Source: Phycisphaerae bacterium (GTDB taxonomy: Bacteria; Planctomycetota; Phycisphaerae; SM23-33). Taken from it: a DNA stretch of 64,000 nt. The notes under the pieces were generated by a model. It saw only the letters and a program-made list of their open reading frames with translations, was not told where the DNA came from and did not search any database. Of the stretch, positions 7,914 through 26,641 are shown one piece after another. Each line of letters starts with the position of its first letter. The stretch's first letter is position 1. The stretch lies in assembly GCA_049510055.1 (NCBI GenBank), contig JBEKZI010000003.1, forward strand, positions 10,576 through 74,575, in the 5' to 3' direction. Made by a program: the position numbers and the translations under genes.

Positions 7914-9008
7914 TTACTCTTGCAGGCCTTCCAGGATGGCGGGGACGTCCACGTATTGGCCGATGAGGTCCCTGGCCATCTGGATGCGCTGCCGGTCGTC
8001 GGGCGTGATTTTGAAGACGGTGTCCTGCACGCGCCCGGCCAGGGTGAAGGTGTCTTCGCTGCACTGGAGGGCCGGCAGGCCCGATTCCACCAGCAGATTC
8101 ATCACGTTGCTCATCGGCAGAAAGCCGCCCGTCAGTATTAGCCCCGCCACCGGCGGGGGGGCCTCTTTGACCAGCGTGTAGGTGCTGATGATGGCCAGGA
8201 TGTTGTCGGTGCGGTCGCCGGGCGTGATCGCCAGGGCGCCGTCTTTCAGATAGGAGACCATGTGGTTGGCCTCCATGCCGGCCACGATGACCTTGCCGAC
8301 GCGGTTGCCCATCGCCCCGGTGCCGCAAAGGATCCGCGCCCCCAGCTGCCGGGCCACCTGGCCGACGGTGGGGGACGCCAGCAATTGCTGGTAGGGCACG
8401 GTGCCGAAGGAGCGAAGGCCCAGGTGTTCCAGTCCCTTGGTAGTGGCTTCTTTGACGCGGTCGTACTTTTCTGGCCAGACCTTGTTGATGACGGTGCCCA
8501 TCAGGTCGGCGCCGCGGGCGGTCAGGTAGGTCGCGCAGAGGGAGATGTCGTCCAGGGCGCGTCCGATGCCGCCGCCGCTGATCAGCATGGCGCGGGCGCC
8601 GATGAGCCGGGCCACTTCGGCGGCGGAAAGTTTCAGCGCCGAGCCCATCGCCACGTGGCCCATGCCTTCGACGATGATGACGTCGTTGTCGGCCTCCAGT
8701 CGCTTGCAGACGGTAGCCACCTTTTCCGCCAGTTCCGGCTCATGCAGCTCGTAGATTTCCTGCTCCACGCGGCCGCGGGTCAGCGGCACGGCCAGGGACG
8801 CCGACTCCGGCCGATACACGTTCATGACCTGCGATACCAGCATGGCGTCGTCGTGGACCTGCTGGCCGTCGACCAGCGTGACGCGCTGCCCCAGCGGCTT
8901 GGTGTAGCCCACCCGCAGGCCGCGATGCTGAAGGGCGCTGATCAGCCCGATGCAGAACGTGGTCTTGCCCACGTCCCGCTGCGTGCCGACGATGTAGAGC
9001 GGCTTCAT
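7914..9008 (-). CDS. BioD-like P-loop + DRTGG domain protein (phosphotransacetylase N-terminal-domain homolog with no PTA catalytic domain)
   Basis: ATG at 9008 ('MKPLYIVGTQRDVGKTTF...'); P-loop and later 'ITPGDRTDNILA...LILTGG' (DRTGG). The upstream 124 codons of the ORF are an Arg/Cys-rich artefact overlapping the neighbouring gene. Confidence 0.7.
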   Translation of the reverse strand: MKPLYIVGTQRDVGKTTFCIGLISALQHRGLRVGYTKPLGQRVTLVDGQQVHDDAMLVSQVMNVYRPESASLAVPLTRGRVEQEIYELHEPELAEKVATVCKRLEADNDVIIVEGMGHVAMGSALKLSAAEVARLIGARAMLISGGGIGRALDDISLCATYLTARGADLMGTVINKVWPEKYDRVKEATTKGLEHLGLRSFGTVPYQQLLASPTVGQVARQLGARILCGTGAMGNRVGKVIVAGMEANHMVSYLKDGALAITPGDRTDNILAIISTYTLVKEAPPPVAGLILTGGFLPMSNVMNLLVESGLPALQCSEDTFTLAGRVQDTVFKITPDDRQRIQMARDLIGQYVDVPAILEGLQE

Positions 9009-9015
9009 GGGCTTT

Positions 9016-9699
9016 TTACCTTTTGCCTTCGGGCTTCGACGCGCCCGCGGCGGCCAGGCGGGCGACCAGCCGCTCGGACAGGACCACGATGTCTTCCAGG
9101 CAGAGGAACGACTCGACGTTGGTCGGCAGCAGCATCGCCGCCGACGGCGCCAGTTCCTCGTCGCCGGCGTACCACGCCAGTTGCACGCACAGGCGCGGAT
9201 ACACCTGGAACTCCATTGCCAGGTCGCCGGCCGGCGCCTCGCTTCGCAGCACTCGGCCGCCCAGTGCCTGGCCGGCCTGGCGCAGCGCGGTGCCGTCGCG
9301 TCCGACCGTCCGGCACAAGCGGCCGATGACGCGTTGCTGATAGATGGAGGCATATCCCCGCCCGCCCGGCAGATCGGCAAAGGTGACGGTGGGGGGTTCC
9401 GAGACGGGCTGGCCCGACACGCCCAGGTAATGCAGCGTCAGGACCTGCCACCAGGGCCCGACGTTTCGGCCGGCTGAGTCGCGCACCGTTCCAGCGTCCG
9501 GCTCGACGGTCCAGATTTCGTTCAGCACGCCGAGGGTCCACCCCTTGCTGACGGGAATGGCGCCTAGCCATTGGAGCTGCTCGGCGGACTGGGCGCGGAC
9601 GGCCGCCGCAGCCCGGGCCGCGGCCTCGTCGTAGTTCCGTTGCGGCGGGGGCACGGCCGGTCGGCCCGCGGGATTAGGTGGGTTTTTTGGCATTGGCAT
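9016..9699 (-). CDS. Hypothetical protein in the ACS operon (possibly DUF3786-type; unverified recollection)
   Basis: 227-aa ORF co-oriented with and tightly packed in the acs operon (8-nt gap to the downstream gene). Confidence 0.5.
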   Translation of the reverse strand: MPMPKNPPNPAGRPAVPPPQRNYDEAAARAAAAVRAQSAEQLQWLGAIPVSKGWTLGVLNEIWTVEPDAGTVRDSAGRNVGPWWQVLTLHYLGVSGQPVSEPPTVTFADLPGGRGYASIYQQRVIGRLCRTVGRDGTALRQAGQALGGRVLRSEAPAGDLAMEFQVYPRLCVQLAWYAGDEELAPSAAMLLPTNVESFLCLEDIVVLSERLVARLAAAGASKPEGKR

Positions 9700-10012
9700 C
9701 GGCGTCGCCTTTGCTCTCCAGCCGCTGCCGGATGCTCTCCAGACACTGCTTGGCGCGGGGATCGTTTTTGACCTCCGCCAGCCGGCGCTCCAGCTCGCGC
9801 ACGTCCACCGCCTCGCCCAGGCATTGGGCGGCCGCCGGGCACCAGTCGGCGCACCGCGGCAGCGACTCCCGCAGCAGCACTTGGCCGCAGCGGCAGGTGC
9901 GCTTGGGCTCGTCGGTGAAGAATTCCACGATCCGCCCGCAGGCCGGGCAGGGCACCAGGACGCTCTCGAGGTTTCGTGGCATCATCCGGCCTGGGCATTT
10001 GAGTGTCAGCAT
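9674..10012 (-). CDS. Small Cys-rich zinc-ribbon protein
   Basis: 'CPACGRIVEFFTDEPKRTCRCGQVL' C4 ribbon plus 'CADWCPAAAQC'. Sits between acsE and the hypothetical gene, overlapping the latter by ~26 nt. Confidence 0.4.
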   Translation of the reverse strand: MLTLKCPGRMMPRNLESVLVPCPACGRIVEFFTDEPKRTCRCGQVLLRESLPRCADWCPAAAQCLGEAVDVRELERRLAEVKNDPRAKQCLESIRQRLESKGDADANAKKPT

Positions 10013-10024
10013 GATTGGACCGCC

Positions 10025-10813
10025 TTACCCGCGTCGGGCCGCGTCGAGGAATGAATCGCAGTAGATCACCTTTCCCAGCAGCAATTCCGCCGTGATGGCC
10101 GTGGTCATCAGCTCCGTGTCCAGCGGGTCCATGATGGCCGCGTCCAGCCCGTGCGCCATGGCCATGGCCAGGTAGGTGCGGTTGATGAGATTGCGCTCGT
10201 GGCATCGCTGGGAGACGTTGGACAATCCCAGCACCAGGTGTGGCGGCGGGTCGGCGAACGCCCGCAGCTGGGAAATGGCCTCGATGCAGTGCGCGGGGTT
10301 TTTGGGGGCTACGTTAACCGGCAGGATGATGGGGTCGATGAAGAGCTTATCCGCCGGCAGGCCGGCCTCCATGGCGATGGCGATGATCTGGGCGCCCAGC
10401 TCGACGCGTTTTTCCACGTTGCCGGGCACGCCGGCGGCGTCGAGGGTCAGGCCGATCAGCCCCGCCCCGTGTTCCACCGCCAGATGCACGTATTGACTGG
10501 CGATCTCCGGATCGGCCTTGCTGGAATTCAAAATTTTCTCGCCAAGCACCTGCGGCACGACGGCCGCCATGACCTCCCATTTGGCGGTGTCGATCGCCAG
10601 CGGGGCGTCCGTCACGGCGCGGATCGTCTCCACCAGCCACAGCATGGCCCCCTTGGCGTCGCTGGCGGCAGGACCGACGTTCACATCCAACGCCCTGGCG
10701 CCGGCGGCAAGCTGCTTTTTGGCCAAGTTCTGGATGACCTTGGCATCCTTGCCGCGGATCGCCTGCTTGACGTTCTCGAACATTCCATTGATGCGTTCGC
10801 CGATGACGTACAT
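10025..10813 (-). CDS. acsE: Methyltetrahydrofolate:corrinoid iron-sulfur protein methyltransferase (MeTr)
   Basis: ATG 10813 gives 'MYVIGERINGMF...'. Pterin-binding fold with 'LDVNVGP', 'VLGLSNVSQ', 'INRTYLAMAMAHGLDAAI'. Near-collinear with Moorella AcsE as recalled. The ORF's upstream extension is rejected. Confidence 0.9.
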   Translation of the reverse strand: MYVIGERINGMFENVKQAIRGKDAKVIQNLAKKQLAAGARALDVNVGPAASDAKGAMLWLVETIRAVTDAPLAIDTAKWEVMAAVVPQVLGEKILNSSKADPEIASQYVHLAVEHGAGLIGLTLDAAGVPGNVEKRVELGAQIIAIAMEAGLPADKLFIDPIILPVNVAPKNPAHCIEAISQLRAFADPPPHLVLGLSNVSQRCHERNLINRTYLAMAMAHGLDAAIMDPLDTELMTTAITAELLLGKVIYCDSFLDAARRG

Positions 10814-10833
10814 GAGTTCCGTTCTTTCTTTTT

Positions 10834-11811
10834 CTATGCGTTCTTGGCCGGCATGAACCGGTCGATGGCTTTCTTGGTCTGCTGGATGGCCTGGGGGTGC
10901 CGCATGATCAGCAGCTCGGCGCCGGATTGCAGCAGGACCGTCGCCGTGGCCGCCTCCCACAGAATGCCCCAGCGGTCGCGGTTTTCGTCCGTCACGCCGG
11001 CAAACGGCGGTGCCTTGGCCTCCTTGACGCGCCACGCCTCGAACCCCACGTCGCAGATCACCGGCTGGGCCAGCAGCTTGTCGCCCCGCAGCGCCGCCAG
11101 CCGCCCGCGCTCCTGAATGCTGTAGACGTACTCCAGGCCGTAGCCCAGCGCGCCGGTGGTGGGGAAAATGACGATGTCCGACAGGGGGTACCCCGCGTCA
11201 GAGCAGAGAATGTTGATCTGCTTGGCCATGTTGATGTCCAGCGGGCTTTCGGCGATGAGCTTGTGCTTGTCGGCCAGGCACACGGCCACGACGGTGCGAT
11301 AATTTTTTTCCCGCGCCGTGCCGAGCAAGCAGTTCTCGCCCTTGGCCGCCGCCGAGGCCGCCGGCAGGATCTCGTTGTCCTTCTCGTCCACGCCGCAGCC
11401 CCAGATGATCAGTGGCACGCCGACGGCCGCCAGGACTTCCTTGACGGTCTCGGCGCACTGCTGGGCCGAGCGATTGCCGGAATCCGGATGGGCGCCGGCC
11501 AGCCGCAGGCAGATCAGATCGGCCCCGAACTGGACCGCCTTTTTCGCCCAGGCGCCCGGGGAGGCCAGGGCGTCGCCGTACACCTCGCCAAGCGGCTGCG
11601 GCCAGGCGTCCCCGCCGCTGTCCCAGACCTCCACGGCGATGGCCGCCCGCCGCCCGACCGCCCCCTCGAACGCCAGGAAGGGCAGCGTGGCCGCTCCGCC
11701 GATGGCGATCGTGCTGGTCCGCGTGCCGCCTTCTTTGGCCGTCGCGCCGAGGATCATCGACGGGATCGCACCCGTCCACTTTTCCGACACGTCCGGCACG
11801 CTCGATGGCAT
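10834..11811 (-). CDS. acsD: Corrinoid iron-sulfur protein small subunit (CODH/ACS delta subunit)
   Basis: 'VLGATAKEGGTRTSTIAIGG', 'ICLRLAGAHPD', 'IIWGCG', 'MRHPQAI' match the AcsD/CdhD family across the full length. Confidence 0.9.
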   Translation of the reverse strand: MPSSVPDVSEKWTGAIPSMILGATAKEGGTRTSTIAIGGAATLPFLAFEGAVGRRAAIAVEVWDSGGDAWPQPLGEVYGDALASPGAWAKKAVQFGADLICLRLAGAHPDSGNRSAQQCAETVKEVLAAVGVPLIIWGCGVDEKDNEILPAASAAAKGENCLLGTAREKNYRTVVAVCLADKHKLIAESPLDINMAKQINILCSDAGYPLSDIVIFPTTGALGYGLEYVYSIQERGRLAALRGDKLLAQPVICDVGFEAWRVKEAKAPPFAGVTDENRDRWGILWEAATATVLLQSGAELLIMRHPQAIQQTKKAIDRFMPAKNA

Positions 11812-11826
11812 AAAGAAAAATCCCTT

Positions 11827-12636
11827 CTACTTTTTCACGTTTTTTGCATTTTCCGCATTTTTTGCAAAGGCGCCCGTGCCGATCTGCGGCAGGCACAGCC
11901 GGGCCAGTGCAGCGACGGCTGCTTGGGCCGCCGGACCGGCTTGGTCGTCCAACGGCACGCCCTGCGTGCAGCGGCGATGCAGGTCTTCGTCGAACGGCAC
12001 GCGAACCACGTCGCCGACGCCCGCAACGGCGAGGTCTTCAGGCAGCTCGTCCGACAGACCCGCCTGGCCGACCTTGTTCAGCACCAGCACGCGTCGGCGG
12101 ACGCGGATGGGCAGGGCGTTTGCCAACGTGGCCAGGCGACGGGCCGTGGTCAGCCCCACCGACGTCGCCTCGGCCACCAGCACCAGCACGTCCACGTCGT
12201 CCACCGTCAGGCGGGAAAGATACTCCATCCCCGCCTCGCAATCCACCACGACGGCCGGATAGGCGCCGCGAAGCTCCTTGAGGTATCGCCGCAGCAGGCC
12301 GTTGACGTAGCAATAGCATTGCGGGCCTTCCGGCCGGCCCATCGTCAGCAGGTCAAAGCCGCTGGCCTCGGTGAGCACCTGGGCCAGCCACTGGTTCATC
12401 AGCCGCTCTTTGGGGATCTCGCTGACGGCCTTGGCGGCTTGGCCCATACGGTCGCGGAGGTCGGAGATTGTGCCTTCCACCGGCACGCCCAGCGTCAAGC
12501 CGAGCGTGGAATTGGGATCGGCGTCCACCGCCAGGATGGGCTTGACCCCCGCGCGTACCAATTGCCGCAGGACCATCGCCGCCAGCGTGGTCTTGCCCGA
12601 ACCGCCCTTGCCGCTGAAGGCCACAAGTACGCCCAT
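11827..12636 (-). CDS. cooC: CooC/AcsF-type nickel-insertion ATPase (MinD/ParA family)
   Basis: 'MGVLVAFSGKGGSGKTT' deviant Walker A; ~270 aa; embedded in the acs operon. Confidence 0.85.
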   Translation of the reverse strand: MGVLVAFSGKGGSGKTTLAAMVLRQLVRAGVKPILAVDADPNSTLGLTLGVPVEGTISDLRDRMGQAAKAVSEIPKERLMNQWLAQVLTEASGFDLLTMGRPEGPQCYCYVNGLLRRYLKELRGAYPAVVVDCEAGMEYLSRLTVDDVDVLVLVAEATSVGLTTARRLATLANALPIRVRRRVLVLNKVGQAGLSDELPEDLAVAGVGDVVRVPFDEDLHRRCTQGVPLDDQAGPAAQAAVAALARLCLPQIGTGAFAKNAENAKNVKK

Positions 12637-12643
12637 CGTTAAC

Positions 12644-14566
12644 TCACCTCCCCGCGGCCATCTCAGCCGAGACGCGCGGGAATAATTCCATGTGTGTGTG
12701 CGGGAAGAAACACGCCGACACGAACTGGTCCATGAACGTCGGGTCGGTGCTCAACTCAAAGTACGTCATTCGCTCGGCGATGCGGGCCATCTCCTCGTAG
12801 GCCTCGGTGCTCAAGGCCGCCAGCTTCGCCCCGGCCAGAGAGGTATTGCCCACGAACCGCAGACGCTCCGGCGGGATATCCGGCAGCAAGCCGATGAAGA
12901 CGGCATTGGCCAGGTTCAGGAAATTCCCGAAGGCCCCAGCCACCGCGATCTCCGAGACGTCCTGGAAGCTCATGTTCAGAGCGTGCAGAAGGACCGTCGC
13001 GGCTGCGTAGATCGCCCCCTTGGCCCGCATGAGGTTGTTGATGTCGCTCTGGGTAACCAGGACGTCCTTGGGCGTGCCCGGCGGCGAGGCCGGGACGACC
13101 AGCCATTCCGCCTCGTCGTGGCGGCCGCGGCGCATTCGCTCGCCGGTGGCTTGAGGATGCAGCCGGCCGGTCTTGTCGATCACGCCGACGCGGAGCATCT
13201 CCGCGACCAAGTCCACGTAGCCGGTGCCGCACAGGCCTACCGGGGGGGCTGAACCGACCGTGGAGTATTCCAAGATGTGATCGGCGTCGGCCAGGCGGAT
13301 GTGGTCGATGGCGCCGCCCGTGGCCCGCATGCCGCTGCGGCACTCGGCCCCCTCAAAGGCCGGGCCGGCGGAGGCGCTGGCGCAGACCAGGAAATCACGG
13401 CCGCCAATGACCATCTCGCCGTTGGTGCCGATGTCGATCAGCATCCGCACTCCCTCGCCGTGCGCCAGTCCGGTGGCGTACACGCCGGCGACGAGGTCAC
13501 CGCCCACAAAACCGGCCACGGATGGCAGACAGTACAGCAGGCCGCGAGGATGGATTCGCAGGCCGACCTCCGCCGCCGGCAAGGGCGGCAGATGATAGGC
13601 TGCTCCGACGTAGGGTTCCCTGCGGATGTTGGCCGCCGGCAGGTCGGCCAGCAGATGCGTCATGGTGGTGTTGCCGGCCGCGGTGATCAGCAGGATATCC
13701 TTAGCCTCCAGGTGGTATCGGCCGGCCAGCTCCCCGATCAGCTCGTTGAGGTCGCCGACGATCGCCTTCTGCATGGCCCGCTGGTGGCCGGCGCTCTGGG
13801 AAGCGTACATAATCCGGCGGATGACATCGGCCCCGTGCGCGGCCTGTGAGTTGTACTTGGCCGCGCGGCCCAGCGTCTGGCCGGTTCGCAGGTCCACCAG
13901 GTGGCAGACCACCGTGGTGGTGCCGATGTCGGCCGCGATGCAGAAGTCTCGCTCGGTGGTGTCGCTGGCCTGGACGTCGAGGATTTCCGTGTACTTCCCG
14001 CGATACGCGGTCACGGCCGTGACCTTCCAATTGCTTTGACGCAGCAGGCTCGGCAGGCGGCGGATGACTTCGATATCACTTCGTAATTCCTTGCAATCAA
14101 ATGTGTTACGAATCGCCTCCTCCAGTCTTTGGAGGTCAGGCGAATTATCTCCAAGGTCAGGCGGGGCCAGTTCGAGATAAATTTTGCGGACCAGGGGCGC
14201 GAGGCGGCCGATCTGCTTGCCCAGCTCTACCGGTAGCGGCGGTTCGGCGGGGACGTGTTGTGTCGCGCCGCCCAAGCGGGAGGAGGGCGGAACCTCCACC
14301 GCCAGGTCCGACTCGACGCGGCCCTGACAGGCCAGGACGTAACCTTGCTCGGCCTCCTGGGGAGTGAAGAACTCGTTGGAGCCGCCGGCCGCCGTTCCTT
14401 GCCGGACGATCACGCGGCAGCGGCCGCAGACGCCCTCACCGCCGCAGAGGGAGTCGATGAGCACGCCCGCCTTGACCGCCGCGGACAGAATCGTCGCGCC
14501 TTGCGGCACCTGAGCGGATACTCCATCGGGGCGAAACTCCACTTTGCAGGTCTTGGCCATAGTCAA
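12644..14566 (-). CDS. Reductive activator of corrinoid protein (RACo): [2Fe-2S] ferredoxin + ASKHA ATPase
   Basis: N-terminal plant-type ferredoxin 'CGGEGVCGRCRV'; ~640 aa with an actin-like ATPase region. Position between cooC and acsC. Confidence 0.8.
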   Translation of the reverse strand: MTMAKTCKVEFRPDGVSAQVPQGATILSAAVKAGVLIDSLCGGEGVCGRCRVIVRQGTAAGGSNEFFTPQEAEQGYVLACQGRVESDLAVEVPPSSRLGGATQHVPAEPPLPVELGKQIGRLAPLVRKIYLELAPPDLGDNSPDLQRLEEAIRNTFDCKELRSDIEVIRRLPSLLRQSNWKVTAVTAYRGKYTEILDVQASDTTERDFCIAADIGTTTVVCHLVDLRTGQTLGRAAKYNSQAAHGADVIRRIMYASQSAGHQRAMQKAIVGDLNELIGELAGRYHLEAKDILLITAAGNTTMTHLLADLPAANIRREPYVGAAYHLPPLPAAEVGLRIHPRGLLYCLPSVAGFVGGDLVAGVYATGLAHGEGVRMLIDIGTNGEMVIGGRDFLVCASASAGPAFEGAECRSGMRATGGAIDHIRLADADHILEYSTVGSAPPVGLCGTGYVDLVAEMLRVGVIDKTGRLHPQATGERMRRGRHDEAEWLVVPASPPGTPKDVLVTQSDINNLMRAKGAIYAAATVLLHALNMSFQDVSEIAVAGAFGNFLNLANAVFIGLLPDIPPERLRFVGNTSLAGAKLAALSTEAYEEMARIAERMTYFELSTDPTFMDQFVSACFFPHTHMELFPRVSAEMAAGR

Positions 14567-14618
14567 ATAAAGTCCTCGCCGGCCGCGCCGGTCGGGAATA
14601 TTTTTTCACACCCCCGCG

Positions 14619-15971
14619 TCAGTTGTTCTTCCACTCGGTCTTGAGATAGGGCCCGATTCCCGACGCCTCCTTGGGACCCACCAGGACCTCCCAGCCGGAT
14701 TCATCCGCCAGGGGCGCGGTCATGACGGCCACCAGCCCCGGGATCACGAGGCGGCGGCGGTTCATCTTGTCCTTGGCGCCGGTGGCGTTCAAGGCGGCCG
14801 TGATCGTCTTGGGATTGAACTTGTCCGCCGCCCAGGCTGTCAGCACGCTGGTGCCTTCGGTGTCCACCGCCAGGATGCGGCAGGGGATGCGCGAGGCCTC
14901 GACTTCCGACTCAACGGCGTAATAGCTCAGCGAGAAATTCGTGGTGATCAGCAGGGGGCTGGCAGCGGAGACCTCGCCGACGTCGTAGAGCTTGGCCTCG
15001 ACCTGCACCGGCTTTTGCGGGTCGGTGTAGATGTTCTGCCGCGTGGTCAGGATCGGCAGGAGGTGGTACGGCTCCCAGGCGTCGGCGACAACCACGGCGG
15101 CGTACTTGCAGACGTACGCGCAGGCGTCCAGTGCGGCGGCGGCCTTGTCCGCCCCGCAGGCGACCGCCAGCGACGGATAGCCCAGCGGACGGAACTTTTT
15201 GTTCAAGGCGGCCCGGCGGCTCTGCGTCAGGAAGGCCAAGGCCGCTGCCGCGCTAGATACCTCGCCGGGGGAAATCAGGATGTCCTTGACGCCCTTGGCG
15301 GCCAGGGCCTCGGTGCGTTCCGCAACGGCTTCCAGCGTCCCGGCCACGCAGAGGGGGGCGGCGGCTTTTTTTGCCAAATCCGCCAACCCCGCCAGGTCGT
15401 CCGCCGCCTGGCCGGTGCAATACAGCACGGGCCGGGCGCCAGCCAGCGGCCCGGTGGCCGCGGCGGCCAGGCTGTCAAGCCGCGGACTCATCAAGACCAT
15501 CCCGATGCCCAGCTCCTTGTGGATGATTTCCGCAGCCGACCGCATCGCCTCCGGCGATCCGGATTCGTTGACCAGCGTGATCATGTCCGGGTGGAGGGTT
15601 TCCCCGACGCGGGTGAACTGCAACTGCTTGAAGGCCGCGCACGCCTGCCGCAGCATGTCCGGCGGATGGGTGTCGCAGAGTCGCAGCGCCACGGCCGGGG
15701 GATTGTAGAACTTGTCGTCGTGGCGGAACAGGGACGTTTCCTGGCCCACCTGGATCGTCTTATCCTGCGGGCCGATCTTCACCAGCCGTTGCGGCGGGGC
15801 GGAGGCCTCGCTCAGCTCCGCGCGGGCCTCCTCCGACAGGCGCGGACAGTCGTTCAATCCCGACTGGCCGGCGGCAACCTTCATCGCGAACGCCAGGCAC
15901 GTCGGTACGCCGCACTCCTTGCAGTTCGCCTTGGGGAGGCGTTTGTAAATTTCCAATCCCGTCAGGGCCAT
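14619..15971 (-). CDS. acsC: Corrinoid iron-sulfur protein large subunit (CODH/ACS gamma subunit)
   Basis: N-terminal [4Fe-4S] motif 'CKECGVPTCLAFAMKVA'. 'MALTGLEIYKRLPK' start matches the AcsC family. TIM-barrel plus B12-binding-like region. Confidence 0.9.
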   Translation of the reverse strand: MALTGLEIYKRLPKANCKECGVPTCLAFAMKVAAGQSGLNDCPRLSEEARAELSEASAPPQRLVKIGPQDKTIQVGQETSLFRHDDKFYNPPAVALRLCDTHPPDMLRQACAAFKQLQFTRVGETLHPDMITLVNESGSPEAMRSAAEIIHKELGIGMVLMSPRLDSLAAAATGPLAGARPVLYCTGQAADDLAGLADLAKKAAAPLCVAGTLEAVAERTEALAAKGVKDILISPGEVSSAAAALAFLTQSRRAALNKKFRPLGYPSLAVACGADKAAAALDACAYVCKYAAVVVADAWEPYHLLPILTTRQNIYTDPQKPVQVEAKLYDVGEVSAASPLLITTNFSLSYYAVESEVEASRIPCRILAVDTEGTSVLTAWAADKFNPKTITAALNATGAKDKMNRRRLVIPGLVAVMTAPLADESGWEVLVGPKEASGIGPYLKTEWKNN

Positions 15972-16002
15972 GGCCTAACCTCGATTTTTCTTGTCGCGGC
16001 GG

Positions 16003-18183: not shown

Positions 18184-18204
18184 GACACTGTCTCCTGTCT
18201 ATCG

Positions 18205-19032
18205 CTATCGCTTGGAAACTGCTGGGCTGGATGTTTGAGTGTAAACGGCAGCCTCGGGCCCTTCCTTTACCATGTGAGCGACCGTCTGCAACCGCCGGCA
18301 GGCGGGGCAAAGATTTTCCAACGGTACGTGCTGGGGCAAAATGGGCCGGATGTGTTCTAGTTGTCGGCAGGGCGCGAAGGGCCGGCCGCAGGATTGGCAG
18401 TGGGCTAGGTCCATGTCGGTGTTCCACGTCTGCATTCGCCGCAGCGGGCCGTCGTCGATGCTGCGAATATGTCCCGTGGGGCAGACGGCCACGCAGGCGC
18501 CGCAGCCGATGCAGACGTCCGAGGCCTCCCGGAACGGCGTGCCGACCTGCCGGTCCACGCCGCGGCTGGCAAAACCGATCGCGCCGATCTTCAGGACCTC
18601 TTCGCACACGCGCGTGCACAGGCCGCAGACGATGCACGTTTCGTCGGGGTCGTCGGTGGGGTAGGGGGTCTCCGTCACGCCGTACTTGGCCGCCAATTTC
18701 TGAATGACCTCGCTGCTGGGGCACCGCGCCAGCAGAAGCTCCAGCACCACCCGCCGGGCTTGCTGGACCGGTTGAGAGTCCGTCTGCACCTCCAGGCCGC
18801 CGCTGGCCGGATACTGGCAGGAGGCCACCAGGCCGCTTTTGCCCTCGGCGGCGACCTCCACCAGGCAGACGCGGCAGGCGGCGTAGGGCTCCAACGCCTC
18901 GTGGTGGCAAAGGGTCGGGATGTCCTTACCCAGCCTTCGACAGACCGTCAGCAAGGTCTCGCCGGGGCGGCCTTCGGTCGCCTGGCCATCCACCACAAGT
19001 TGGAATGCCTCGTCAGCCATTCTTGTTTGCAC
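18205..19032 (-). CDS. HoxU/NuoG-N-terminal-like iron-sulfur protein ([2Fe-2S] + [4Fe-4S] clusters; no hydrogenase catalytic domain)
   Basis: 'CRVCLVEV', 'CIVCGLCTRVC', 'CIGCGACVAVCPTG' and further Cys motifs. 275 aa, the size of a diaphorase gamma subunit. Confidence 0.75.
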   Translation of the reverse strand: MQTRMADEAFQLVVDGQATEGRPGETLLTVCRRLGKDIPTLCHHEALEPYAACRVCLVEVAAEGKSGLVASCQYPASGGLEVQTDSQPVQQARRVVLELLLARCPSSEVIQKLAAKYGVTETPYPTDDPDETCIVCGLCTRVCEEVLKIGAIGFASRGVDRQVGTPFREASDVCIGCGACVAVCPTGHIRSIDDGPLRRMQTWNTDMDLAHCQSCGRPFAPCRQLEHIRPILPQHVPLENLCPACRRLQTVAHMVKEGPEAAVYTQTSSPAVSKR

Positions 19033-20758
19033 CTTTTTCGCGTTTTTCGCCTAAAGAATCGTTATCGCTTCTCAAGGCCGTGCACACGCCGGCGGGGCAG
19101 CGCTTGTCCACTACGTGGGCGAAGTATTCGTCCCGGAAATATTTCAGCGTGCTGAGGACGGGGTTCGGGGCGGTCGTGCCCAGCCCGCACAGAGAGCCGG
19201 CCTTGACGCCCCGGGCCAACGTCTCCAGGCGGGCGAGGTCCTCGACGGCGCCCCGGCCGTCGCAGATTCGCGTGAGGATGCCCAGCATGTGCTTGATGCC
19301 CTCGCGGCAGGGCGTGCACTTGCCGCAAGATTCCTCCCGCAGGAAGTTCATGAAGTAGCGGGCCACGTCCACGACACACGTGCGGTCGTCCATGACGATC
19401 ATCCCGCCGGAGCCCATCATCACCCCGGCCGCGGTCAGGGACTCATAATCGACGGGCAGGTCCAGCAGGGATTCGGGGATCATGCCGGCGGGGCCGCCGG
19501 TCTGGACGGCCTTGAATTTTCGTCCCGCCGGAACGCCGCCGCCAATGTCGTCGATGATCTGTCGCAGGGGGGTGCCCATGGGCACCTCGACCAGGCCGGT
19601 GTTGCGGATCTTGCCCACCAGCGAGAAGACCTTCGTGCCCTTGGACGTTTCCGTGCCGATGCCGGCGAACCAGTCAGCGCCGCGATTGATGATCTGCGGC
19701 ACGTTGGCCCAGGTCTCCACGTTGTTGATGACGGTGGGCTTGCCCCACAGGCCGCGCTCGGCGGGGTAGGGGGGCTTGGGCGAAGGCGTGCCCAGGCGGC
19801 CTTCGACGCTGGCGATCAGGGCCGTTTCCTCACCGCAGACGAACGCCCCGGCCCCGCGGCTGACGTGCACCTGGAAATTCCACCCGCTGCCCAGGATATT
19901 CTCGCCCACGAGGCCATGTGCCTTGGCCTGCTCGATGGCGGCCAAGACGTGCCGCACGGCCAGGGGATACTCGGCCCGGACGTAAATGACGGCCTCATCG
20001 GCGCCGATGGCGTAGCCGCCGATCAGCATTCCCTCCAACACGCTGTGGGGGTTGCCCTCCAGGACCGAGCGATTCATGTAGGCGCCGGGGTCGCCCTCGT
20101 CGGCGTTGCAGACGACGTATTTCTTGTCGCCCGGCTTGTCGCGGCAGATGCGCCACTTTCTTCCGGTGGGAAAACCGCCGCCACCCCGCCCACGCAGACC
20201 GCTCCGCTCGATCTCGTCGATGACGTGCCGGGGCGAACCGCCGGCCAGGACCTTGGTCCAGGCCGCATACCCGCCGGCGGCGATGTAGTCCTCGATCGAG
20301 CAGGGGTCCACCTCCGCATTCATTCCAAGCACCAGCCGCTGCTGCCGCTCATAGAAAGGCAGACGCCGGATGTCCCGGACCGCCTCACCCGTCCGCGGAT
20401 CGCGATAGCACCACTCCTCGATGACCTTCCCGCCCAGCAGCGACTCTTTTAGCAAGCGGGGCACGTCTTTGGGGGCCGGGTGAGGGTAAAAGATGTTGCT
20501 GGGGCGCAGGATGAGCAGGGGTTCCTGCTCGCAGAATCCAAGGCACCCCGTGACGCGCAGCAGGACCTTGCCGGTCAGCCGCAATTCTTTCAGGCCGGCC
20601 TGCAAGGCCTCGACCAGGGCCCCCGAACCGTTGACCATACCGCAGGTGCCGGAAGAGACGATCAGACAAGGCTTGCCGGCGCGGGCCTTGGACAGCTTGG
20701 CCCGATGGGCCTCCAGCTTGCCCGGCGAATCGAACAATTTGGCCTTGGTGGCGATCAT
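19013..20758 (-). CDS. NuoF/HoxF-like NAD(P)H-binding flavoprotein with N-terminal thioredoxin-like [2Fe-2S] domain
   Basis: FMN/NAD and SLBB regions; N3 cluster motif 'ESCGKCTPCREG'; N-terminal 'CGMVNG...CLGFCEQ' [2Fe-2S]. No C-terminal 2x[4Fe-4S] ferredoxin domain. Confidence 0.85.
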   Translation of the reverse strand: MIATKAKLFDSPGKLEAHRAKLSKARAGKPCLIVSSGTCGMVNGSGALVEALQAGLKELRLTGKVLLRVTGCLGFCEQEPLLILRPSNIFYPHPAPKDVPRLLKESLLGGKVIEEWCYRDPRTGEAVRDIRRLPFYERQQRLVLGMNAEVDPCSIEDYIAAGGYAAWTKVLAGGSPRHVIDEIERSGLRGRGGGGFPTGRKWRICRDKPGDKKYVVCNADEGDPGAYMNRSVLEGNPHSVLEGMLIGGYAIGADEAVIYVRAEYPLAVRHVLAAIEQAKAHGLVGENILGSGWNFQVHVSRGAGAFVCGEETALIASVEGRLGTPSPKPPYPAERGLWGKPTVINNVETWANVPQIINRGADWFAGIGTETSKGTKVFSLVGKIRNTGLVEVPMGTPLRQIIDDIGGGVPAGRKFKAVQTGGPAGMIPESLLDLPVDYESLTAAGVMMGSGGMIVMDDRTCVVDVARYFMNFLREESCGKCTPCREGIKHMLGILTRICDGRGAVEDLARLETLARGVKAGSLCGLGTTAPNPVLSTLKYFRDEYFAHVVDKRCPAGVCTALRSDNDSLGEKREKGANKNG

Positions 20759-21267
20759 GTTGAAGCCGGCCTGCGCGGGCCTTTTTTGTCTCTGTCTTTT
20801 TCTTTGCCTTTACCGACGGTGCGAAGCAGGGCGTCGGCCTTGTCGGGGGTCATCTTGCCGTGGTAGGCGCCGTCCAGCACGACGATCGGCCCTATCGCGC
20901 AAGCGCCGAGGCAGTTGACGCTGACCAGTGTGAATCGGCCGTCCGCCGTGGTGCCGCCCGAGGCGACCTGCAATCGCCGCTGGAGGTGTTCCAGCATCGT
21001 CGTCGCCCCGCAGACGTGGCAGGCCGTGCCGGTGCAGACGGTAATCTCATGCTTGCCTCGCGGCGTGAGGCGGAAAGAGCGGTAGAACGTCGCCAACCCG
21101 TACAGCCTGGCCAGCGGCACGCCGAGTTCGCGGCTGACGGCCTTGAGCACCTCGGCGGGGAGATAGTCGTACTGCCCTTGGACTTCCTGGAGCAGCATCA
21201 CCAGGCTGTCGTCGCCGGCGACGTACTGGCAGCACAGCTTCGGAACGGCTTTGAGATCAACGGCCAC
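20755..21267 (-). CDS. NuoE/HoxE-like thioredoxin-fold [2Fe-2S] protein
   Basis: 'CTGTACHVCGA...CLGACAIGP' motif. ATGA overlap with the downstream nuoF-like gene. Confidence 0.8.
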   Translation of the reverse strand: MAVDLKAVPKLCCQYVAGDDSLVMLLQEVQGQYDYLPAEVLKAVSRELGVPLARLYGLATFYRSFRLTPRGKHEITVCTGTACHVCGATTMLEHLQRRLQVASGGTTADGRFTLVSVNCLGACAIGPIVVLDGAYHGKMTPDKADALLRTVGKGKEKDRDKKGPRRPAST

Positions 21268-21802
21268 GATTTCGCTCCATGGCTAAGCGGGCGGCGTCCT
21301 CTCCCGCGGCGATCTTCGCCGCGGCCTCTTGTCGCCGCCGCTTTAGCCATTCATCCACTTCGCAAAACTCCAGCGCCCCGGTGGGGCAGCCGGCCACGCA
21401 AGCCGGTTCCTCACCCTCCTGAGTGAGCTGGAGACACAGGTCGCACTTCACCATCGCCTTGCCATCGCGGGAAAGGTCAATGACGCCGAAGGGGCAAACC
21501 TGCAGGCAGAACTTGCATCCGATGCACTTGGCAGACTCGATGAGCACCGGCCCGTTCTCGACGGGGCGATGGATCGCCTCGGTCGGGCAGACCGTCATGC
21601 ACGGGGCGTCCTGGCAATGGCGGCATTGCAGCGGGATGCCGCACGTCCCGGCCGCCTCCACGTGCACGCGCGGCTGCGGCGGCGCAGCGGACGCGACGGC
21701 CTCGGCCAGGCTCTTGGCCTCGCTGTGCGCCATGGCGCACTGGAGCACGCAGGTCTTGCACCCCAGGCAGCGCTGCTCGTTGATGACAATCATCTTGGCC
21801 AT
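21257..21802 (-). CDS. cooF: CooF-type 4Fe-4S ferredoxin (CODH electron-transfer subunit)
   Basis: ATG 21802 with AAGGAG 6 nt upstream gives 'MAKMIVINEQRCLGCKTCVLQC...'. Four CxxCxxCxxxCP-type motifs. Confidence 0.8.
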   Translation of the reverse strand: MAKMIVINEQRCLGCKTCVLQCAMAHSEAKSLAEAVASAAPPQPRVHVEAAGTCGIPLQCRHCQDAPCMTVCPTEAIHRPVENGPVLIESAKCIGCKFCLQVCPFGVIDLSRDGKAMVKCDLCLQLTQEGEEPACVAGCPTGALEFCEVDEWLKRRRQEAAAKIAAGEDAARLAMERNRGR

Positions 21803-21815
21803 GGGAGGCTCCTTG

Positions 21816-23768
21816 CTAGACGGCCACGGCGGCGGCACTGGCCGTCCGCGGGGCGTAGGGGACCGGGTACATGGGGCCGGGCAGGTGCAGGGCGGCGCGC
21901 TTGGCGTCGATGTGGTCGATGATCAAGCGGGCGGCCTTGATCGGGTCGGCCTCAAAAGCGAACTTGCCGCCGAACAGTTTCTCGATGCCGCCGCAGAGGA
22001 ACTCGGTCAGTTGCGGGGCGCCCTGGACCGGCAGCGGCTCGCCCAGCACGGTGAAGACGCCCGAGGCGACGGCGTAGAAGCCGATGGCCACAGCCTTCTC
22101 GCTCATCCATTCCGGCGCGGCCGCGGCCACGGGCAGGTCGGCGATGCTTTGGCCCAGGCCTCCCTCGGCCACGACCCGGGACAGGACCACCAGGATGCGG
22201 CTGATGTCCACGCAGGAACCCAGGTGCAGCACGGGCGGAATGCCGACGGCCCGGCAGATTTCCCGCACGCCGGCCCCACCGTACTGCTCCGCCGCCTCGG
22301 GGCACAGCAGGCCGGCCTTGGCGTCGGCCACGGCGGAGCAGCCCGTCACGGCGACCAGCACGTCGTTGGCGAGCAGTTCCTTGGCCATGGCCAGGTGCCC
22401 GTAGTCGTGGGGGAGAATGCGGGGGTTGTTGCACCCGACCACGCCGGCCACGCCGCGAAGCCGGCCGGACATGACGGCGTCGTTCAGCGGCCGGTAGCTG
22501 GCGCGGTAGCGGCCACCCAGCATCGTGGCGATGTTCTCCGCCGTGAAGCCGGCCACCAGCGGCTGGCTGTCCGGCGGCACGCACGGGGCGGCCTTGCGGT
22601 TGGGGAAGTTCTCCACGGCCATGCGGACGATCCGCTTGGCGGTCGCCAGGGCCTTGGATTCGTCGAACTCCACGTGCTCGGCGTAGGGGAACTTGGCCTT
22701 GGGCGACGTGGAGATGAACTTGGTGTGGAATTTTTGGGTCAGCTTGCCCAACGCCGGGAAGACGCACTGAACGTCCACCACCATCGCGTCGACCACGCCG
22801 GTGGCCACGGCCAGCTCCTGCTGGAGGAAGTTCCCGGCCAGCGGGATGCCATGCCGCATCAGAATTTCGTTGGCCGTGCAGCAGATACCGCCCAGGTTGA
22901 TGCCGGTGGCGCCCTTGCTCTTGGCCAGGGCCAGAAGCTCCTTGTCCTGTGCGGCGGCGACGATCATCTCCGAAAGCGTCGGCTCGTGGCCGTGGACGAC
23001 GATGTTCACCATGGCCGGGTCCAGGATGCCCAGATTGGCCCGGCTGCGGACCCACGTGGGCGTGCGGAACAGCACGTCGGACAGCTCCGTGGCGATCATC
23101 GAGCCGCCCCAGCCGTCCGCCAGGGCCGCCCGGACGCCTTGAAGAATAATGTTGGTGGGTTCGTTGTCGACGCCCATGTTGGTGCGGTGCATGATCTCCA
23201 CGACCTCGCGGTCCACGCCGCGGGGCACCACGCCCGCCTCTCGCCAGCGGCGGCGCTGGTCCTGGGGGGCCCGGGCGGCGAACACCACCTCGCCGTGCTG
23301 CTGGCCGAACTGGCCGAAGGCGATCGTGGCTACGGCCAGGGCGATCTCGCGGAGGTCCTTGCCGTCGGTGGCCACGCCCAGCTCGCCGGCCAGGGCGCGG
23401 AGCTTGACGGGGTCCTTGATCTGATAGTCGCAGTCGGCCCGCTCGGCCGCCATGAGCAGCGTGTGGGCGATGTCCCGCCCGTGGTCCGAGTGGGCCGATG
23501 CCCCGGCGGCGATCATTCGCACCAGGTTCCGGGCGGCGATGATATCCGCCGTCGCCCCGCAGATGCCCTCGGAAGGCCCGTCGCCGAAGGGGTCGATGCG
23601 GCAGGGGCCCATCTTGCAGTTGCGGCAGCAGATGCCCAGTTGCCCAAAGCCGCATTGCGGCTCCATGGCCTCCTGGCGGTCCCAGGCGACCTGGAGGTCC
23701 TGGGCGGCTGCTTTGGTCAGCATGGCTATGGTTGCAGGGTCAACGCTGCGTTGTTGAGGGGTTTTCAC
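21816..23768 (-). CDS. cooS: Anaerobic Ni,Fe carbon monoxide dehydrogenase catalytic subunit
   Basis: N-terminal 'CGFGQLGICCRNCKMGPCRI' B/D-cluster motif; 650 aa; hybrid-cluster/CODH family over the full length. Confidence 0.9.
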   Translation of the reverse strand: MKTPQQRSVDPATIAMLTKAAAQDLQVAWDRQEAMEPQCGFGQLGICCRNCKMGPCRIDPFGDGPSEGICGATADIIAARNLVRMIAAGASAHSDHGRDIAHTLLMAAERADCDYQIKDPVKLRALAGELGVATDGKDLREIALAVATIAFGQFGQQHGEVVFAARAPQDQRRRWREAGVVPRGVDREVVEIMHRTNMGVDNEPTNIILQGVRAALADGWGGSMIATELSDVLFRTPTWVRSRANLGILDPAMVNIVVHGHEPTLSEMIVAAAQDKELLALAKSKGATGINLGGICCTANEILMRHGIPLAGNFLQQELAVATGVVDAMVVDVQCVFPALGKLTQKFHTKFISTSPKAKFPYAEHVEFDESKALATAKRIVRMAVENFPNRKAAPCVPPDSQPLVAGFTAENIATMLGGRYRASYRPLNDAVMSGRLRGVAGVVGCNNPRILPHDYGHLAMAKELLANDVLVAVTGCSAVADAKAGLLCPEAAEQYGGAGVREICRAVGIPPVLHLGSCVDISRILVVLSRVVAEGGLGQSIADLPVAAAAPEWMSEKAVAIGFYAVASGVFTVLGEPLPVQGAPQLTEFLCGGIEKLFGGKFAFEADPIKAARLIIDHIDAKRAALHLPGPMYPVPYAPRTASAAAVAV

Positions 23769-24092
23769 AACGGCACCTCTTTTCTTGGATTGGGCGGTCA
23801 GCCTGGAGGCGTCAGAGGCCGAGTTTGGCAGACTTGCACAACCCTCCGTGATCAGAACGGTACACTGGCCATTTCCTCCGGCCTGTCTGGATGACTACGT
23901 CCCTGGAAGGTAGCAAAACACCGGTTGTCCAAGCAACCCATTTTTCAGGCAAAGCCGGGCAAGACGGCCGGGTCGCGGATTGCCTTGCAGCAAACGGGCA
24001 AGGCGGATAAGCTCCCGCCTTCCGACCGGAGGGAGGGACAGGGGGATTTCAGCGAAGATAAAAACGAAAACGAGCACGGGGCCGGAGCGACG

Positions 24093-24884: not shown

Positions 24885-24895
24885 GGAGAGTGATC

Positions 24896-26641
<1,746 letters not shown>

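Follow-up and report, generated by a model that had tools for sequence, protein, structure and literature searches.

The window (the whole 64,000-nucleotide stretch of DNA analyzed here) very probably holds a genuine, intact acs operon of an uncultured member of the Phycisphaerae, in which a Bfu-type module has been truncated and whose use is likely reductive. Fourteen co-directional genes occupy positions 7914–23768 of the minus strand, with all open reading frames present, in the order cooS-cooF-bfuCBA-acsB-acsC-RACo-cooC-acsD-acsE, followed by genes for a Zn-ribbon, a DUF3786 and a Pta-N-like protein. The 14-gene operon and the gene identities of the original prediction are borne out by the reading frames and their Pfam domains, as are its short gaps and overlaps, although spacing runs from −11 to +58 nt and the predicted maximum of 52 nt matches RACo read from its TTG. 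The gene order, including the Zn-ribbon/DUF3786/DRTGG tail and a divergent cooC2-fhs pair, is kept in about 15 Planctomycetota species, and the accession numbers of the NCBI annotation are consistent with 14 consecutive genes, so the arrangement is no chance run of reading frames. Pairwise dN/dS relative to the sister species is 0.05–0.29 for every gene.

Gene content of the operon

The Ni-CODH catalytic subunit CooS/AcsA (21816–23768, minus strand; Pfam Prismane, E 1e-163) spans 650 aa from a GTG at 23768 or 635 aa from 23723, matches the PDB CODHs 6t7j and 6ytt_B with an E of about 1e-200, and aligns at the conserved Cys/His motifs for clusters B, C and D. The 726-aa acetyl-CoA synthase AcsB, or A-cluster subunit (16003–18183, minus; Pfam CdhC, ACS_CODH_B_C and CODH_A_N), matches 6ytt_A (E 8e-200) with its CxxCx8Cx9C and CGC motifs conserved; neither protein shows a frameshift or lacks a ligand Cys. 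In structures of bacterial CODH/ACS the N-terminal domain of ACS contacts the CODH subunit. Also on the minus strand are both subunits of the corrinoid iron-sulfur protein (CFeSP), AcsC (large; 14619–15971; Pfam CdhD, E 2e-86, with an N-terminal FeS motif) and AcsD (small; 10834–11811; CdhD, E 1e-34), the reductive activator RACo with all four of its domains (12644–14566; Fer2, RACo_linker, Raco_middle and RACo_C_ter), a CooC/AcsF-type Ni-insertion ATPase (11827–12636; CbiA, with a GKGGSGKT P-loop and a CYC motif) and the methyl-THF:CFeSP methyltransferase AcsE (10025–10813; 262 aa from ATG; Pterin_bind, E 1.5e-20). The carbonyl branch gene set is thus complete, as had been claimed, with CODH, ACS, both CFeSP subunits, methyltransferase, RACo and Ni-insertion ATPases all encoded, and judging from these homologies the region is predicted to encode all that is needed to interconvert CO2, methyl-tetrahydrofolate and CoA with acetyl-CoA.

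The last three minus-strand genes of the operon form a conserved tail. A 112-aa Cys-rich, zinc-ribbon-like protein (9674–10012) has no match in Pfam or NCBIfam; most acs loci of Planctomycetota, and some of other phyla, carry a homologue in the corresponding place. The DUF3786 protein (9016–9699; 212–227 aa; E 1.5e-29) is syntenic in related loci. The 364-aa stand-alone protein resembling the Pta N-terminus (7914–9008) combines AAA_26 (a BioD-like P-loop) with DRTGG and is without the PTA_PTB catalytic domain, aligning to positions 3–371 of the 708 in the NCBIfam phosphate acetyltransferase profile PRK05632 at 169 bits, below the cut-off of 418 bits. Divergently, on the plus strand, lies the predicted methyl-branch gene fhs (formate-tetrahydrofolate ligase, 24890–26641; FTHFS, E 6e-263), preceded by a second cooC-type ATPase gene that the prediction had not listed (23925–24884; CbiA, with a GKGGVGKT P-loop and a CLC motif). 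The latter likely starts further downstream, giving about 263 aa, the length that gene callers assign in two related loci (L083 and L084). Of the methyl branch the window thus has fhs; fdh, folD and metF, like any gene for an acetate-forming enzyme, would be encoded elsewhere in the genome.

Host lineage

The host is shown to be of the class Phycisphaerae, within Planctomycetota, by the housekeeping valyl-tRNA synthetase (ValRS), the NCBI labels and the AcsB neighbors, in agreement with the PVC host expected earlier. The window ValRS is 100% identical to a protein of an NCBI Phycisphaerae metagenome-assembled genome (MAG), and all its named neighbors are Phycisphaerae or Planctomycetota. In a neighbor-joining tree AcsB falls in a Phycisphaerae-labeled clade whose sister clade holds MAGs labeled Brocadiaceae and Pirellulaceae. 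An "Actinomycetes" MAG (L011) nests within the Planctomycetota AcsB clade of the same tree, a placement showing that MAG labels can mislead. The identities of AcsB to a sister contig (97%) and to the nearest species representative (88%), together with that of ValRS to the sister contig (82%), point to one and the same lineage.

This evidence bears on the chance that the operon is foreign to its contig through mis-assembly, mis-binning or recent transfer from an acetogen or anammox bacterium, which we consider negligible. We found no support for such an origin, and against it stand the 18-kb stretch with its flanks, 99.98–100% identical in three other assemblies (one a 1.07-Mb contig), the even GC of 0.61–0.68 over operon and flanks, and the Phycisphaerae ValRS. 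Known anammox lineages had been excluded in advance, and we concur: AcsB shares only 62% identity with its nearest Brocadiaceae counterpart, and GC is 0.640 for the window and 0.668 for the operon. Anammox genomes have a GC of about 40–46%.

The suggestion of an uncharacterized high-GC lineage holds in part. The lineage is uncultured, yet already represented in databases: the proteins are in NCBI as MGA2264978–MGA2264991 [Phycisphaerae bacterium], exact copies of window proteins are also in JGI and ENA, and AcsB has over 100 relatives at 74% identity or higher. The claim is only partly new because Wood-Ljungdahl genes of non-anammox Planctomycetota MAGs were published earlier (a passage of PMC11929135 citing Chi 2023; PMC6146748); Ni-CODH has also been counted in 28 Planctomycetes genomes (PMC6344411). 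Relatives, Phycisphaerae SM23_33 among them, have been public since 2015. In the flanks we confirmed the expected PEP-CTERM protein (58426–59799) and prepilin-type pseudopilins, but the H-X9-DG motif ascribed to the latter was not found by regular expression or NCBIfam. Sugar-use genes of the window include those for a fucose isomerase, an FGGY kinase and a rhamnogalacturonan-lyase-like protein.

A truncated Bfu module

Between cooS and acsB, in overlapping reading frames on the minus strand, lie cooF, bfuC, bfuB and bfuA. CooF (21257–21802; 181 aa; Pfam Fer4_11) is a poly-[4Fe-4S] electron-transfer subunit of the WorS/HycB kind, matching HycB3/HycB4 of PDB 7qv7 and aligning with WorS (9mqx_E) across residues 1–165; its gene overlaps bfuC by 11 nt. 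The NuoE-like BfuC (20755–21267; thioredoxin-like [2Fe-2S], Pfam 2Fe-2S_thioredx, E 1e-45) matches PDB HydC/NfnC/WorC (E 1e-32 to 1e-40) and has its Cys at residues 78, 83, 119 and 123 (Cx4C and Cx3C). BfuB (19013–20758; 581 aa; Complex1_51K and NADH_4Fe-4S) is a NuoF-like FMN/NADH subunit matching the bifurcating 7t2r_B, 7q4v_B, 9n5u_B and 9mqx_B (E 1e-195 to 1e-211). The short NuoG/HoxU-like BfuA (18205–19032; 271 aa from the ATG at 19020; Fer2_4 and Fer4_7) has a [2Fe-2S] motif, two 4Fe-4S motifs and a C-terminal zinc-finger-like motif of four Cys, and its best PDB match is the 247-aa WorA (9mqx_A, E 1e-47), nearly full length including the CxxC...CxxC tail. The gene similarity behind the earlier "nuoE/nuoF/hoxU-like" naming is real, but the trio had been filed as generic and is instead a truncated BfuC/BfuB/BfuA module. 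Its closest relatives are the electron-bifurcating enzymes WorABC and NiFe-HydABC, and taken together with CooS and CooF it corresponds to the "Codh-Bfu" type, here inside an acs operon. No organism has yielded a purified CooS/CooF/BfuABC (PMC12318220), so we infer the complex from gene overlap and homology.

Codh-Bfu, or CodhABCSF, is a purely genome-based proposal (Schut et al. 2022, PMC9304861; PNAS 2025, PMC12318220), and Schut et al. propose that it oxidizes trace CO. A cluster dedicated likewise to CO oxidation or detoxification (carboxydotrophy), as proposed in Firmicutes, rather than to acetyl-CoA metabolism is nevertheless improbable here, as cooS shares its operon with acsB, acsCDE and RACo, AcsB retains its N-terminal CODH_A_N domain, and no second CODH or energy-converting hydrogenase lies nearby.

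The truncation removes the C-terminal 2x[4Fe-4S] ferredoxin-like domain (B3/B4) of BfuB, whose clusters adjoin the ferredoxin bound to a Bfu enzyme of known structure (PMC12018979). Alignments to bifurcating BfuBs all stop at residue 562–563, just past CPAGVCTAL, while a 68–77-aa tail with 10 Cys is kept in 11 of 11 BfuB homologues of related loci. Relative to the sister locus L081, bfuB carries a 158-nt deletion, found on 8 contigs and in the three loci 99.98–100% identical to the window. Both BfuB and BfuC have evolved faster on this branch: lineage-specific amino-acid changes in BfuB number 28 against 7 (p = 5e-4), 4 of which fall where 9 homologues are invariant, and BfuC shows a similar excess.

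These data lend some weight to the view that bfuCBA is a decaying, functionless remnant, with CODH/ACS using CooF and free ferredoxin as in module-free relatives, which we hold possible but somewhat doubtful. Besides the lost domain and the four-fold excess of BfuB changes, it is favored by an N/S ratio of bfuB and bfuC raised on this branch only (Fisher p = 0.017) and by a 1-nt frameshift allele of bfuB in one assembly (L085), which together with the excess change suggests that the module may be inactive here; many close relatives, moreover, carry the operon without Bfu genes, so the module is dispensable. Against decay, the 562 BfuB codons that remain are open, as are BfuC and BfuA in full, branch N/S is about 0.57, well under the neutral expectation, the bfuB/bfuA stop-start overlap survived the deletion, and BfuA is not accelerated (9 vs. 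10 changes).

Direction of use and known systems

By homology to WorABCSL and the proposed Codh-Bfu, CooF would wire the D/B clusters of CODH to BfuA, so that the carbonyl branch could exchange electrons with the NAD(H) pool. Relatives with full-length BfuB may, through electron bifurcation or confurcation, exchange with ferredoxin too. In this population the loss of B3/B4, the ferredoxin-reducing domain in solved Bfu enzymes, would leave at most a non-bifurcating CODH-NAD(H) link, or a module in the course of being lost.

The CODH/ACS reaction is reversible. An oxidative use, in which ACS cleaves acetyl-CoA, CODH oxidizes the CO and electrons reach NAD+ via CooF and the truncated Bfu module in syntrophic or respiratory oxidation of acetate or acetyl-CoA, is accordingly conceivable, though unlikely. 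It gains from reversibility, from a deletion fixed in several assemblies and from the fact that, once the ferredoxin branch is gone, coupling of CODH to NAD(H) is all that a Bfu module can provide, with CO to NAD+ downhill and NADH to CO2 steeply uphill (potentials in PMC9304861, Table 1). However, gene content does not reveal direction, on which the earlier suggestion of CO2 fixation or acetogenesis also depends, no respiratory or syntrophy genes occur in the window, and relatives share Fhs and this operon layout whether their BfuB is full-length or they have no Bfu genes. Reductive acetyl-CoA synthesis, which would give an anaerobic heterotroph degrading sugars an electron sink and a route of carbon assimilation, is the physiological use we infer to be most likely.

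Acetogen acs clusters, for example in Moorella thermoacetica and Clostridium autoethanogenum, have the same enzyme set and domain architectures; the solved CODH/ACS of the latter species (6ytt) is matched by AcsB and CooS at E values of about 1e-200 with metal-ligand motifs conserved. Acetogen hosts are Firmicutes whereas ours is a Phycisphaerae bacterium, the gene order differs, the Zn-ribbon/DUF3786/Pta-N-like tail is conserved here, and no Hdr/MetVF genes are attached to the operon within the window. The anammox (Brocadiia) clusters belong to the same phylum, with Brocadiaceae MAG AcsB in the sister clade, but differ in the low AcsB identity, the far higher GC of the window (64%) and a ValRS grouping with Phycisphaerae.

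Codh-Bfu likewise encodes CooS, CooF and BfuA/B/C together, but as published comprises 4 sequences, only from Firmicutes, forming a stand-alone CO oxidizer (PMC9304861), whereas the present set is embedded in a CODH/ACS operon and occurs in Planctomycetota as well as in MAGs from several further phyla. Like WorA, BfuA belongs to the short type and bears a zinc-finger motif at its C-terminus, and CooF is a WorS homologue; BfuB differs in lacking B3/B4. The best solved match of BfuB is NiFe-HydB of A. mobile (7t2r_B), an enzyme whose BfuB belongs to clade 49, which also holds Codh-Bfu (PMC9304861). For BfuA the closest solved structure is that of WorABCSL (PDB 9MQX), the electron-bifurcating tungsten aldehyde oxidoreductase from Acetomicrobium mobile, which BfuB, BfuC and CooF/WorS also match. 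The two would share a logic of catalytic subunit to poly-ferredoxin to short BfuA to BfuBC core, with a tungstopterin catalytic subunit and a B3/B4-retaining WorB in the one, and a Ni-CODH and a BfuB without that domain in the other.

Gene content and integrity of the acs operon

The acs operon consists of 14 open reading frames with high third-position GC on the minus strand, running from 23768 to 7914, and Pfam assigns them, in order, as the 14-gene carbonyl branch of the Wood-Ljungdahl pathway that had been read from the sequence alone. The order is CooS (Prismane, E 1e-163), CooF (Fer4_11), a NuoE-like [2Fe-2S] protein (2Fe-2S_thioredx), a NuoF-like FMN/NADH protein and a 2Fe-2S/4Fe-4S NuoG/HoxU-like protein (both by Pfam), AcsB (CODH_A_N, CdhC, ACS_CODH_B_C), AcsC (FeS, CdhD), RACo (4/4 domains), a CooC-like ATPase of the CbiA type (CbiA), AcsD (by Pfam), AcsE (Pterin_bind), a Cys-rich 112-aa ORF without a family, a DUF3786 protein, and a protein with AAA_26 and DRTGG domains. 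Spacing between the genes is −11 to +58 nt, and the reading frames overlap from cooF through bfuA (the NuoG/HoxU-like gene); on the sequence evidence, cooS and the CooF-Bfu genes are translationally linked. The GC content is 0.668 in the operon and 0.640 in the window.

On the plus strand and divergent from the operon lie a second CooC-like ATPase gene (cooC2, 23925–24884) and, downstream of it, fhs (24890–26641; Pfam E 6e-263). The original prediction had placed fhs correctly, and its gene list holds for this gene and for the 14 operon genes, but it left out the second cooC. Each of the two CooC-like ATPases carries a CXC motif as well as a P-loop. With the CFeSP subunits (AcsC, AcsD), the AcsE methyltransferase, RACo and the Ni-insertion ATPases all present by Pfam, the predicted gene set for reversible acetyl-CoA synthesis is complete; from the methyl branch, which bears on assignment as an acetogen, only fhs lies within the window. 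The longest ORF of cooC2 has approximately 56 extra N-terminal residues ahead of the P-loop (23925–24092, plus strand). Gene callers in other assemblies choose a later start, giving a protein of 263 aa and thus a divergent cooS-cooC2 intergenic region of approximately 325–370 nt, in which we found no recognizable motif and no inverted repeat. Scanned for promoters and terminators, the operon showed no excess of sites relative to shuffled sequence.

The two catalytic subunits seem intact. CooS aligns end to end with the solved Ni-CODHs 6t7j and 6ytt_B (E ~1e-200), and its motifs CGFGQLGICCRNCKMGPC, GICGA, HGHEP, GICCT, VQC, GCNNP, TGCS and GSCVD, which from the CODH-II structure we take to be the ligands of the B, C and D clusters, line up with their counterparts in the solved CODHs. 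AcsB matches the solved ACS 6ytt_A (E 8e-200) and has the three-domain bacterial architecture, the pattern CxxCx8Cx9C and a Cys-Gly-Cys; its motifs CTLCQSFAPNHVCMITPERLGLCGA and SCGCFEC, presumably the A-cluster ligands of ACS, are those of 6ytt_A barring conservative non-Cys substitutions. Since the conserved Cys/His motifs of both proteins are all kept in these alignments and pairwise dN/dS relative to the sister species is 0.05–0.29 for all genes, the search for a frameshift or a lost cluster ligand in AcsB or CooS, which found neither, does not speak against the integrity of the operon.

The last gene of the operon (7914–9008, minus strand) encodes a stand-alone homologue of the non-catalytic N-terminal half of type II phosphate acetyltransferase (a BioD-like P-loop and DRTGG). 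It matches the phosphate acetyltransferase profile below cut-off and over positions 3–371 of 708 only, without the catalytic domain, and thus gives no evidence for acetate formation. Planctomycetota acs operons conserve this gene in last position, and MAGs of other phyla also have it close to acs genes. The pair before it (9016–10012, minus strand), encoding the Cys-rich and DUF3786 proteins, accompanies acs operons in loci from Planctomycetota, Armatimonadota, Kiritimatiellia, Verrucomicrobiota and Bipolaricaulota.

Host and distribution

The window also encodes ValRS, HisRS and LeuA. Its ValRS shares 100% identity with a protein listed at NCBI as “MAG: Phycisphaerae bacterium,” and all named ValRS neighbours are Phycisphaerae or Planctomycetota. 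An exact protein look-up at NCBI returned AcsB, BfuB, BfuA, the DRTGG protein and the 650-aa CooS as MGA2264986, 88, 87, 78, and 91 [Phycisphaerae bacterium], respectively; the same exact proteins occur in JGI, ENA and Logan assemblies, and three fetched loci, one of them on a 1.07-Mb contig, are 99.98–100% identical to the window across 12–18 kb. More than 100 AcsB relatives share at least 74% identity, and in GTDB data with one genome per species the best AcsB matches are Phycisphaerae and Planctomycetota MAGs. The AcsB of SM23_33 from the 2015 White Oak River study is 81% identical to that of the window, and the AcsB of a Brocadiaceae MAG only 62%. In a neighbour-joining AcsB tree, to be taken coarsely as it is without bootstrap, the window falls in a Phycisphaerae-labelled clade whose sister clade holds MAGs labelled Brocadiaceae, Pirellulaceae and Planctomycetales, with Verrucomicrobiota, Kiritimatiellia and Lentisphaerae in a separate clade. 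The ValRS identity, the AcsB matches and the AcsB tree together bear out the inference of a PVC, non-anammox, high-GC host, and by the same evidence the acs operon looks native to Planctomycetota. Those ValRS and AcsB neighbours that carry a name belong to Phycisphaerae, and not to the anammox Brocadiia. One locus from an “Actinomycetes” MAG (L011, JAUXAG010000005.1) carries the full Planctomycetota-type operon, Bfu genes included, and its AcsB, 70% identical, groups within the Planctomycetota clade; a binning or labelling mistake is the probable explanation, or otherwise a transfer.

The whole operon, including the tail of Zn-ribbon, DUF3786 and DRTGG genes and the divergent cooC2-fhs pair, was found in approximately 15 Planctomycetota species. 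Ni-CODH has been reported in 28 Planctomycetes genomes (PMC6344411), non-anammox Planctomycetes MAGs carry acsB (PMC6146748), and Wood-Ljungdahl carbon fixation is ascribed to non-anammox Planctomycetota MAGs (PMC11929135, citing Chi et al., 2023). Our literature search on Phycisphaerae together with the Wood-Ljungdahl pathway or acetyl-CoA synthase returned mostly incidental co-mentions and no dedicated paper, and in several papers, Robbins 2016 and Baker 2015 among them, the pathway is not ascribed to Phycisphaerae. The suggestion of an uncharacterised lineage is thus right as to the high-GC non-anammox host but goes too far otherwise: because the sequence is public, relatives are numerous and MAG surveys already note the pathway in the phylum, a Wood-Ljungdahl operon in a non-anammox planctomycete, although real and correctly read in outline, is an ordinary finding that adds little by itself. 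It supports CODH/ACS as widespread, and probably old, within Planctomycetota, and the abundant Phycisphaerae of sediment and soil are not to be regarded as plain sugar fermenters. What the finding adds is a Codh-Bfu-type module embedded in an acs operon, together with its natural truncation.

Genes for a rhamnogalacturonan-lyase-like/FG-GAP protein, L-fucose isomerase and an FGGY sugar kinase (47431–49395 and 59905–63129, minus strand) point to a polysaccharide- and deoxy-sugar-using lifestyle of the host, and these nearby sugar-use genes would fit a fermentative heterotroph with the pathway as electron sink. Elsewhere in the window are genes for phosphate uptake (15–3819, plus strand: a PstA-like permease, PstB ATPase, PhoU and then a Porin_5 family porin) and a tRNA-Arg(ACG) at 5685–5758 (minus strand), the one RNA gene returned by an Rfam search of the window. 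A large type II secretion/type IV pilus-like cluster (26713–40019, minus strand) encodes an 827-aa family-less protein, a GspF-like protein, three GspE/PilB/PilT-type ATPases in tandem and at least five prepilin-type pseudopilins; pseudopilins had been anticipated, but the H-X9-DG motif attributed to them was not found.

A Bfu-type module and the truncation of its BfuB

The trio between cooF and acsB, listed originally as nuoE/nuoF/hoxU-like, is not a generic set of complex-I-like genes, a reading ruled out by its matches to structures of electron-bifurcating enzymes; we therefore refer to the genes as bfuC (20755–21267), bfuB (19013–20758) and bfuA (18205–19032, all minus strand). The NuoF-like protein matches the solved BfuBs NiFe-HydB (7t2r), FeFe-HydB (7q4v), NfnB (9n5u) and WorB (9mqx) at E 1e-195 to 1e-211, with approximately 60% identity over residues 32–562. 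It contains the FMN/NADH domain, SLBB and the B1 [4Fe-4S] site (Pfam Complex1_51K, SLBB, NADH_4Fe-4S) and, at the level of a domain match, a candidate N-terminal thioredoxin-like B5 domain (a weak 2Fe-2S_thioredx match at residues 24–104). For the 271-aa NuoG-like protein the best structural match is WorA (9mqx_A, E 1e-47), across almost all of the protein, including the C-terminal CxxC...CxxC zinc-finger motif; the region of the A3 His/Cys motif is missing, as in WorA, so that the protein is a Type 2 BfuA (short, lacking A3 and A5, and fed by extra subunits). The NuoE-like protein matches HydC, NfnC and WorC in the PDB and carries the C1 [2Fe-2S] site (Pfam 2Fe-2S_thioredx; Cys at residues 78, 83, 119 and 123), and CooF matches HycB3/HycB4 and, across residues 1–165, WorS.

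The BfuB feature that the window protein lacks is the B3/B4 domain, the C-terminal ferredoxin-type 2x[4Fe-4S] domain (IPR017896) that forms part of the BfuB definition in Schut et al. (PMC9304861) and lies within 13 Å of the ferredoxin cluster in the ferredoxin-bound Nfn-Bfu structure (PMC12018979). At 581 aa it ends 19 residues past CPAGVCTAL with no Fer4 Pfam match, whereas all 11 BfuB homologues compared run on for 68–77 residues with two CxxCxxCxxxCP motifs. DNA alignment with the sister contig (L081; ~91% identity, BfuB of 622 aa) shows that 158 nt are cleanly deleted from the window (window 19013–19075, L081 8947–9126). The piece lost is exactly the B3/B4 domain, directly after the CPAGVC hinge, and the resulting frameshift adds 19 unrelated codons, followed by a stop that shares nucleotides with the bfuA ATG. 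An assembly error, which would make this truncation an artefact, is rejected: the exact 581-aa BfuB occurs on 8 contigs, including loci differing by 0–2 nt from the window, and the deletion is thus real.

Counts of lineage-specific amino-acid changes in window vs. sister, with the related locus L001 as outgroup, show an excess on the window side for BfuB (28 vs. 7, p = 5e-4), BfuC (8 vs. 1, p = 0.039) and CooF (6 vs. 0, p = 0.031), and similar numbers for CooS (14 vs. 12, p = 0.85), AcsB (8 vs. 8) and BfuA (9 vs. 10, p = 1). Four of the BfuB changes fall at sites invariant in nine homologues. For bfuB, codon counts assign an N/S of 20/35 to the window branch and of 5/24 to its sister, with a Fisher p of 0.017 for bfuB and bfuC combined and 0.9 for control genes. 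A JGI locus (L085, 3300018024; 4001–5745, corresponding to window 19013–20758) carries the same truncated allele, in which one more nucleotide is missing from an AAA run (position 932 of bfuB); this shifts the frame near codon 311, leaves ORFs of 313 and 235 aa, and reflects either a sequencing error or a genuine pseudogene allele. Taken together, the excess of BfuB and BfuC changes, the N/S counts and the L085 frameshift indicate that constraint on the BfuBC core is relaxed in the window lineage, yet still present. Full pseudogenisation of the Bfu genes is not supported outright, with frames open and N/S well below neutral.

Proposed coupling and comparison with known Bfu systems

In the mechanism we propose, CooF would pass electrons between the CODH clusters and BfuA, and in relatives with a complete BfuB the interconversion of CO2 and CO would be coupled to NAD(H) plus ferredoxin. 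Schut et al. (PMC9304861) considered such coupling sensible at very dilute CO, which would be the situation of a CODH handing its CO to ACS. A BfuB without B3/B4 would have its ferredoxin branch cut, leaving either a CODH-NAD(H) link or an inactive relic; the loss of the domain argues against tightly coupled reduction of NAD+ and ferredoxin in the window organism, and for an NAD(H)-only link oxidation would be the thermodynamically easier direction. More broadly, we offer as a tentative and rather doubtful proposal that the CODH/ACS complexes of Phycisphaerae and several further phyla have their CODH hard-wired via CooF to a Bfu-type flavo-iron-sulfur module, so that half of the electrons for CO2 reduction come from NADH by confurcation with ferredoxin, or are returned in reverse, the window being a natural knock-out of the ferredoxin branch in which the module becomes a simple CODH-NAD(H) link. 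If true, this would be a previously uncharacterised means by which the Wood-Ljungdahl pathway could spend less ferredoxin. The presence of a Bfu module within an acs operon suggests that in some bacteria the NAD(H) pool may be coupled to the pathway's most reducing step, and closely related genomes with full-length and domain-deleted BfuB offer a ready comparison for the role of the ferredoxin-like domain.

Bfu genes share a locus with acsB in about a dozen of 80 species loci, from Planctomycetota, Armatimonadota, Victivallales, Verrucomicrobiota, Bipolaricaulota and Actinomycetota, and are missing from the acs locus in many close relatives; NuoE/F/G-like COGs have been noted in the neighbourhoods of Wood-Ljungdahl CODHs (PMC6344411). 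Among the loci compared (L001–L015 and L067), CooF identity to the window is 53–83% in Bfu-bearing loci where the fetched stretch covers cooF, and only 34–50% in most loci without Bfu genes (the exception being L067 at 61%). This split suggests that a distinct CooF type may travel with the Bfu module.

The solved structure that best matches BfuA is that of WorABCSL (9MQX), in which the catalytic subunit leads through a poly-ferredoxin “nanowire” to a short BfuA and a bifurcating BfuBC core (PMC12318220). A homologous Codh-Bfu (CodhABCSF) has been proposed from genomes alone, on four sequences from Firmicutes only, and was never purified (PMC12318220; Schut et al., 2022, PMC9304861); our search found no literature discussing it beyond these two papers. 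The window has the same parts list as the proposed Codh-Bfu (CooS, CooF and BfuABC), but here the set sits inside an acs operon.
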